A stretch of DNA of 64,000 nt from Candidatus Dormiibacterota bacterium (GTDB lineage Bacteria > Chloroflexota > Dormibacteria > Dormibacterales > Dormibacteraceae), in the NCBI GenBank assembly GCA_003169845.1, contig PNAG01000028.1, forward strand, positions 19,490-83,489. Direction: 5' to 3'. Both the position numbers and the translations under genes were made by a program. Under the pieces are notes generated by a model. That model saw only the letters and a program-made list of their open reading frames with translations, was not told the DNA's origin and ran no database searches. Below are positions 32,828 to 33,113 of this stretch, one piece after another. Position 1 is the stretch's first letter; each line of letters starts with the position of its first letter.

Positions 32828-32855
32828 CGCCGCGGCGGCGGCGGTGAGCAGACGG

Positions 32856-33113
32856 CTATCCGAGATTACGGGCTCGCAACGCGGTGAGCACGATCGAGCA
32901 GACGAGAAAGGCTACGACCAGCACCCAGGTGGTCCAGTAGATCTGGCGCTCCAGGCCGCGACGCGTGCGATAACCGCCGCCGGTCCCGTCGCCGCCGCCG
33001 CCGATCGTTCCACCGAGGCCCGACGACTTCGGGGTCTGGATGAGCACGCTCGCCATCAGGAGGACCGCGAGCACGGCCTCCGTGATGACGAGGGTCTGGA
33101 CGATCTTAGCCAT
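32856..33113 (-). CDS. secG: Preprotein translocase subunit SecG
   Basis: 85 aa with two TM segments flanking a Gly-rich loop (SSGLGGTIGGGGDGTGGG). Confidence 0.8.
   Translation of the reverse strand: MAKIVQTLVITEAVLAVLLMASVLIQTPKSSGLGGTIGGGGDGTGGGYRTRRGLERQIYWTTWVLVVAFLVCSIVLTALRARNLG

Follow-up and report, generated by a model that had tools for sequence, protein, structure and literature searches.

The gene for a substrate-binding lipoprotein (SBP) in a Dormibacteraceae genome lacks a workable canonical start codon, and its translation is probably initiated with fMet at an ATC codon (32866-32864) within the end of the upstream gene secG, where initiation would most likely be fed by ribosomes terminating on secG. 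An in-frame ATH codon (ATC, ATT or ATA) at the corresponding position, together with the overlap between the two genes, is conserved in most orthologs of the family, and a complete lipoprotein signal peptide is encoded from this codon onward.

Organization of the secG-SBP junction

All unprefixed positions refer to the window, i.e. the whole stretch of 64,000 nucleotides that was analyzed. The features of the junction are the following:

31244..32866, reverse strand: proposed coding sequence of the SBP_bac_5 lipoprotein, 540 amino acids plus stop, from ATC 32866 to the stop at 31246-31244 (by translation)
32864..32866, reverse strand: proposed start codon ATC, predicted to be read as fMet (ATH conservation, lipoprotein rule)
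32856..32866, reverse strand: overlap of SBP and secG, 11 nt (from the sequence)
32856..33113, reverse strand: secG, 85 amino acids (PF03840, E 3.6e-16)
32798..32866, reverse strand: predicted signal peptide, 23 codons, MSDSRLLTAAAAAVVVTLALVGC (lipobox LVGC at 32809-32798)
32800-32798, reverse strand: TGC, codon of the Cys predicted to be lipidated (lipobox; Cys23 counted from the ATC)
32849..32851, reverse strand: CTG, rival start codon 4 nt 3' of the secG stop (18-residue peptide without Lys/Arg)
32825..32827, reverse strand: GTG, first canonical start and the one picked by gene callers (within the hydrophobic core, 9 codons before the Cys)

In the list of open reading frames, the SBP gene is entered as 31244..32827 with the GTG start. 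The first-pass annotation had already described GTG 32827 as the first canonical start, yielding a protein that begins with MVVTLALVGC, and its coordinates and residues all proved correct. The frame remains open 5' of this codon as far as a TAG at ~32911 and reads W-S-stop-P-F-S-S-A-R-S-C-S-P-R-C-E-P-V-I-S-D-S-R-L-L-T-A-A-A-A-A-V-V-V-T-L-A-L-V-G-C-Q-P-V. Translation of the frame bore out the earlier statement that the upstream extension is devoid of ATG, GTG, and TTG; none of these codons occurs in the SBP frame between the in-frame TAG (~32911) and GTG 32827. The secG stop codon (TAG 32858-32856) falls within the proposed extension. In the overlap the secG frame reads AAT CTC GGA TAG and the SBP frame ATC TCG GAT AG., so that the ATC lies within the last four secG codons, with its A and T supplied by the Asn codon AAT in the penultimate region of secG. 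This location of the ATC inside secG did not figure in the first-pass annotation.

The earlier assignment as a substrate-binding protein agrees with a match to the Pfam family PF00496 (residues 79-446, 216.7 bits at a gathering cut-off of 32.4, E 6.8e-64). At the level of NCBIfam equivalogs the protein stays below all cut-offs in the comparison with Opp4A, NikA, DppA, and GsiB, the best scores being 159.8 bits for Opp4A (cut-off 650) and 114.8 bits for NikA (cut-off 393). No permease or ATPase genes lie beside the SBP gene; its neighbors are secG upstream and genes for an SDR protein and an aminotransferase downstream. This orphan SBP gene is kept directly after secG, and overlapping it, in most of the family (>80 genomes).

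Conservation of the start region

A first round of comparison covered orthologs at 67-91% identity from all 21 genomes of the same genus plus two sister genera. An in-frame Ile codon was present 19-22 codons before the Cys in 20 of the 22 in-group sequences, a TGA was found exactly two codons 5' of that Ile in 14 of them, and the first canonical start was always located within the hydrophobic core. The survey was then extended to the whole family: 159 genomes were searched, 115 of which contained an ortholog, and the 5' regions of 85 more were retrieved. The family-wide counts given here cover the 109 Dormibacteraceae orthologs with a recognizable lipobox.

An in-frame ATH codon is located 18-23 codons before the Cys in 86 of the 109 orthologs (ATC in 51, ATA in 18, ATT in 17, ATG in none). 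A rule-conforming signal peptide (see below) is obtained only from the ATH codon in 78 of the 109, only from a canonical start in 14, from both in eight, and from neither in nine. With the ATH start, the signal peptide comprises 19-24 residues in 82 of the 86 orthologs, mostly 20-21, and its n-region has a net charge of +1 to +4 in 85 of the 86. In more than 80 genomes the residues encoded upstream keep the frame and their hydrophobic character, with Arg ahead of them. Since 47 orthologs contain an in-frame stop codon one or two codons 5' of the ATH, translation cannot start further 5' there. Downstream, no canonical start at all exists between the ATH and the Cys in 21 of the 86 orthologs, and in the others the first canonical start wanders between 2 and 16 codons 5' of the Cys. 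The overlap with secG is similarly confined, amounting to 5-14 nt in 83 of the 86 (11 nt in 49, 14 nt in 27, 8 nt in five, and 5 nt in two). With the layout recurring in 86 independently assembled genomes, an assembly error was rejected.

Comparison of the N-termini revealed no canonical start in the in-group that had been mutated in the present genome. Canonical ATG, GTG or TTG starts are limited to a sister genus and to relatives of about 50% identity, and they occupy another position. In sister genus g3 (L024), the ortholog begins at an ordinary TTG 13 nt after the secG stop and encodes MARKAGIGLLLAALALAAC. Seven orthologs carry ACN in place of ATH, namely ACG in three (L079, L091, L110), ACT in two (L094, L114), and ACC in two (L008, L014). 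An evident substitute start exists in only one of the seven; in L008, which lost the ATH, a TTG followed by a new Arg provides a canonical start with its own n-region. The ACG codon at this site may still initiate, because ACG also appears to be the start of infC in a sister family and of a second lipoprotein gene in the host genome; the orthologs with ACT or ACC count against a strict dependence on ATH.

Signal peptide and membrane anchoring

Bacterial lipoproteins are recognized by a PROSITE PS51257-type rule, which demands a lipobox leading to the Cys with six uncharged preceding core positions, places this Cys between residues 15 and 35, and requires a Lys or Arg among residues 1-7. The SBP conforms to the lipobox pattern (...AVVVTL-AL-V-G-C). 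The position and charge rule is satisfied with the ATC start only (Cys23, Arg5); the CTG start fails for want of a Lys or Arg and the GTG start by placing the Cys at residue 10. The n-region of the host copy has a net charge of 0, with one Asp and one Arg. Among 40 lipoprotein-like genes of the host genome, a canonical start 14-45 codons before the Cys is missing in only two, and 38 encode ordinary signal peptides of 17-36 residues.

The host genome encodes Lgt (PF01790, three matches) and the signal peptidase II LspA (PF01252, one strong match). No match was obtained for LolA (PF03548) or Omp85/BamA (PF01103) in the 94%-complete host genome, which makes it more likely that the SBP is anchored, in the manner of Gram-positive bacteria, in the cytoplasmic membrane. 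The upstream sequence had been described previously as a complete Sec/Lol signal peptide starting at either ATC or CTG. The full lipoprotein signal peptide has strong comparative support. The Lol part is not supported, as neither LolA nor Omp85 was found. Of the two start codons, the ATC is backed by the ATH in 86 orthologs, and the CTG is not conserved.

Proposed mechanism of initiation

Ribosomes that end secG at TAG 32858-32856 would re-initiate on the ATC, situated 8 nt 5' of where this stop begins, and the near-cognate codon would be read by the initiator tRNA as fMet. The rate of initiation would be low and open to discrimination by IF3. A Sec-type lipoprotein signal peptide of 23 residues would open the product (MSDSR...). 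After lipidation of Cys23 by Lgt and cleavage before this residue by LspA, the binding protein would stay anchored at the outer face of the cytoplasmic membrane.

The host copy has no SD-like sequence upstream of the ATC, and the secG stop follows 5 nt past this codon; secG-terminated ribosomes are therefore the most likely source of initiation. With an 11-nt overlap, stop and start are as close as expected for a coupled gene pair. In about half of the orthologs GGTG(A) is found 6-7 nt upstream of the ATH and could pair with the 16S tail. As a general explanation SD pairing was rejected, since the host copy lacks the motif, and the efficiency of initiation would rest on the putative coupling. 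Starts at AUA, AUC, AUU, and CUG reach 1-2% of the AUG rate in E. coli and yield an N-terminal Met, and an ACG start gave Met-initiated GFP (bioRxiv 10.1101/063800). Excess IF3 depresses re-initiation in E. coli, which also depends on a formylated initiator tRNA in the P site (PMC2268962).

No change that would explain a relaxed start choice was found in the initiator tRNA, the S9 tail or IF3 of the host. Three G-C pairs are present, as usual, in the anticodon stem of the initiator tRNA, the tail of ribosomal protein S9 is the common one (...Y-T-K-R), and IF3 keeps the FRGREM motif as well as R99, D106, K110, R131, R133, and E134 (E. coli numbering), its variable positions 112 and 116 not being family-specific. 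Strong SD-like motifs at a distance of 4-9 nt precede only about 10% of the first canonical starts in the host genome, and before ATG such motifs are barely above background (6.6% vs 4%). A genome-wide SD test of non-canonical starts was discarded, as it has no power with so weak a signal. The conserved 16S tail had no match in the assembly, so the 16S 3' end cannot be read.

Alternative explanations

The ATH codon overlaps secG, and part of its conservation has to be attributed to the latter: the 'AT' follows in part from a conserved His (or Asn) in the SecG tail, the overlapped secG codon being CAT in 76, AAT in eight, and GAT in two of the 86 orthologs. Re-initiation after secG could hence be indifferent to the codon, with ATH as a by-product of the SecG His/Asn codon. 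This reading would fit the conservation of the His as an amino acid, the seven orthologs with ACN and a still intact gene, and the lack of an SD-like motif in the host copy. A by-product would, however, track codon usage. The T of ATH is the synonymous third base of the secG His/Asn codon, and codon usage from 2763 confidently coding ORFs of the host genome amounts to only 25% CAT among His codons and 16% AAT among Asn codons (CAC 75%, AAC 84%), i.e. C is favored over T by about 3:1 to 5:1 genome-wide at such codons; yet T is kept in 86 orthologs. The third bases of neighboring secG Thr codons vary through all four letters. The retention of ATH thus appears to go beyond what the secG coding constraint predicts. 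Where relatives have CAT AAC in secG, equivalent to ATA ACC in the SBP frame, the host subgroup has CGT AAT, equivalent to GTA ATC; a synonymous change of the Asn codon apparently re-created ATH one codon further on after its loss at the original site, and this shift restored ATH and not some other codon. Given, in addition, the need for formylated initiator tRNA in the P site during E. coli re-initiation (PMC2268962), codon-indifferent re-initiation is regarded as very unlikely. On a quick tree, built from the codons of the mature protein only, at least 18 changes among A, C, and T were counted at the third base of ATH and never one to G; on so short a tree, and with a base that doubles as the first position of a secG codon, the pattern is suggestive, not proof, of an avoidance of ATG.

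Of the remaining explanations, a start at CTG 32851-32849, alone or alongside the ATC, would yield an 18-residue signal peptide (MLTAAAAAVVVTLALVGC). CTG belongs to the known near-cognate starts, it is apparently used elsewhere in the host genome (in recO, where it is family-conserved, with alr, cofD, and MIP also pointing to CTG), it sits just past the secG stop in a favorable spot for re-initiation, and the same position is TTG in L006, L008, and L015, followed by Arg in L006 and L008. The n-region of the CTG peptide, however, has no Lys or Arg, unlike 36 of 38 lipoprotein-like signal peptides of the host genome, and conserved Arg residues lie upstream of it. Moreover, a CTG within seven codons 3' of the ATH occurs in only 20 of the 86 orthologs and is rule-conforming in one, and the residue at this position varies (L, S, A, Y, F). 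A CTG start is accordingly considered unlikely; ATC 32866-32864 is clearly favored over it and is most likely the start. Were the annotated canonical GTG 32827 (or 32824) the start, the protein would not be a normal lipoprotein and the open upstream frame would be a matter of chance. GTG is indeed the sole canonical start, public gene callers choose the equivalent codon, and long open alternative frames are common in GC-rich genomes. Against this stand the 9-residue stub left before the Cys, which is unable to serve as a signal peptide, the missing or wandering canonical starts of the orthologs, the upstream residues kept in more than 80 genomes, and the full signal peptides encoded by family relatives with canonical starts; a GTG start is highly improbable. 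A separate start would be unnecessary if a programmed +1 frameshift near the end of secG produced a SecG-SBP fusion, and the SBP frame is indeed +1 relative to secG, overlaps it, and is open far into secG in some genomes. Such a fusion was rejected and is scarcely credible: the stop one or two codons before the ATH in 47 orthologs restricts the shift window to at most about five codons, no conserved slippery sequence exists in that window, the secG tail differs among subgroups, and the retention of ATH would be left unexplained. A third hydrophobic segment after the two helices of SecG would also be expected, from the topology of E. coli SecG, to misplace the binding domain.

Probable near-cognate starts elsewhere in the genome and family

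Annotated starts in 79 model bacterial genomes are ATG, GTG or TTG in 99.95% of cases. The host genome was screened for coding-like sequence 5' of the first canonical start, followed by a Pfam scan of 60 stop-to-stop translations. Individual candidates are listed here:

G000:C26:291852-291854 (L116:2002-2004), reverse strand: infC, ATC start (ATC TCG TTT AAG), two codons after an in-frame TAG
38650-38652 of the window, reverse strand: whiA, candidate ATT start (MSFSADVKNE), with GGAGGT 7 nt upstream
G000:C28:60337-60339 (L124), reverse strand: Y_phosphatase3 gene, apparent ATC start 2 nt after the rpsI TAG (AAG CGC TAG AG ATC)
G000:C21, ORF 51007-52122, forward strand: second lipoprotein-like gene without a canonical start, candidate start ACG (ACG CGC...), MRAAVAIAVIGIAAVAC

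In infC, the conserved N-domain of IF3 is encoded upstream of the first canonical TTG, and the ATC start is present throughout the Dormibacteraceae; ATC or ATA is kept at the infC start in families f1, f2, and f4 of the class. Sister family f3 has ACG instead, in the context stop-S-T(ACG)-A-F-R-E-L-R-I-N-D, with no other possible start. For whiA, the first ATG lies 10 codons downstream of the ATT, and the Pfam match leaves the N-terminus uncovered.

At least 15 further genes (loci L117-L136, L206, L228) encode a Pfam domain that starts 9-65 residues upstream of the first ATG, GTG or TTG. They comprise genes for IMPDH-like, DUF1015, RecO, CofD, alanine racemase (Alr), FMO-like, Y_phosphatase3, and two MFS proteins, as well as CheA-Hpt, EamA, adenosine deaminase, MIP, PAS, and epimerase proteins, and their likely starts are ATC, ATA or CTG. 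All 17-18 family members examined have kept the CTG of recO and the ATH of the DUF1015 gene, at the very positions where relatives from the wider class mostly show ATG, GTG or TTG. In the host genome, the only one counted, about 0.6% of the long ORFs would have such starts. This figure is a lower bound, because the codon-usage likelihood screen, which works for some genes, is insensitive and leads to an undercount: the SBP gene itself is ranked 317th owing to its overlap with secG and its Ala-rich signal peptide.

A habit of the whole family, in which near-cognate starts (ATH, CTG, and probably ACG) serve about 1% or more of the Dormibacteraceae genes, including housekeeping genes (candidates are recO, alr, the DUF1015 gene, the IMPDH-like gene, cofD, and whiA), is a tentative reading that we regard with some doubt. 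If true, it would imply either a relaxed proofreading of start codons or the dependence of many genes on IF3 activity or on upstream translation. A literature search retrieved no paper on start codons in Dormibacter.

Two observations on other genes were made along the way. The PGK domain of pgk (window 35465-36718, reverse strand) starts at residue 34 of the ORF from GTG 36718, which would fit a later start close to the gap stop. Just upstream of locus L214, an in-frame TGA (G000:C21:79468-79470) occurs within a thioredoxin-fold AhpC/TSA domain, in the context F-W-A-S-W-[TGA]-G-C-R. The TGA stands where the first redox Cys is expected, and the product is a candidate selenocysteine protein.

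Comparison with known systems

Near-cognate AUH starts are known from E. coli pcnB and from infC, whose AUU/AUC start in this organism is subject to IF3-dependent discrimination. In mycoplasmas, variant initiator tRNAs reportedly go along with non-AUG starts. The host lineage resembles the latter in that several housekeeping genes have AUH or other near-cognate starts, and differs from them in that its initiator tRNA, S9 tail, and IF3 motif are all usual. The AUH near-cognate start of infC is conserved across many species, weak, and proofread by IF3 (PMC9723500). Like infC, the SBP gene has a conserved AUH start, and infC of the host even shares the first two codons, ATC TCG. Unlike infC, the SBP gene belongs outside the translation apparatus and shows no evident autoregulatory logic, its start is placed inside the upstream gene with no SD in the present copy, and its regulation by IF3 is only presumed.

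In the close spacing to an upstream stop within the same operon, the SBP start, located a few nt from this stop, resembles coupled ATGA/GTGA junctions such as M13 geneV-geneVII (PMC2268962), and as in the M13 type the host copy has no independent ribosome-binding site. It deviates from these junctions in that the start is ATC instead of AUG or GUG and the overlap spans 11 nt instead of 1 or 4 nt. The protein itself is comparable to Gram-positive SBPs of the OppA/DppA class with respect to the PF00496 domain, a lipobox signal peptide, the presence of Lgt and LspA, and the failure to find outer-membrane machinery. Unlike the SBPs of OppA/DppA-class importers, it is encoded without an adjacent permease or ATPase and scores far below the equivalog cut-offs. 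Both AUH starts and stop-start coupling are already established, so the mechanism is not new, and the SBP represents a well-supported further case of a near-cognate start.

Implications for annotation and biology

Among the best 120 public homologs, 107 bear the motif, and the lipobox Cys falls between residues 3 and 14 of the called protein in about 100 of these 107. The SBP start is hence mis-called almost everywhere in public gene calls, and the signal peptide is removed. With the signal peptide gone, the protein is mis-sorted as cytoplasmic in localization and secretome analyses of the Dormibacterota, to our knowledge an uncultured soil phylum known only from metagenomes. Across the family the start is kept as ATH and never as ATG and was even re-established at a neighboring codon, which suggests that weak, secG-linked translation of the orphan SBP is itself under selection. 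Should the pattern hold genome-wide, about 1% of the proteins in this lineage would be systematically truncated by standard gene finders, and the lineage would constitute a natural case for the evolution of start-codon stringency.
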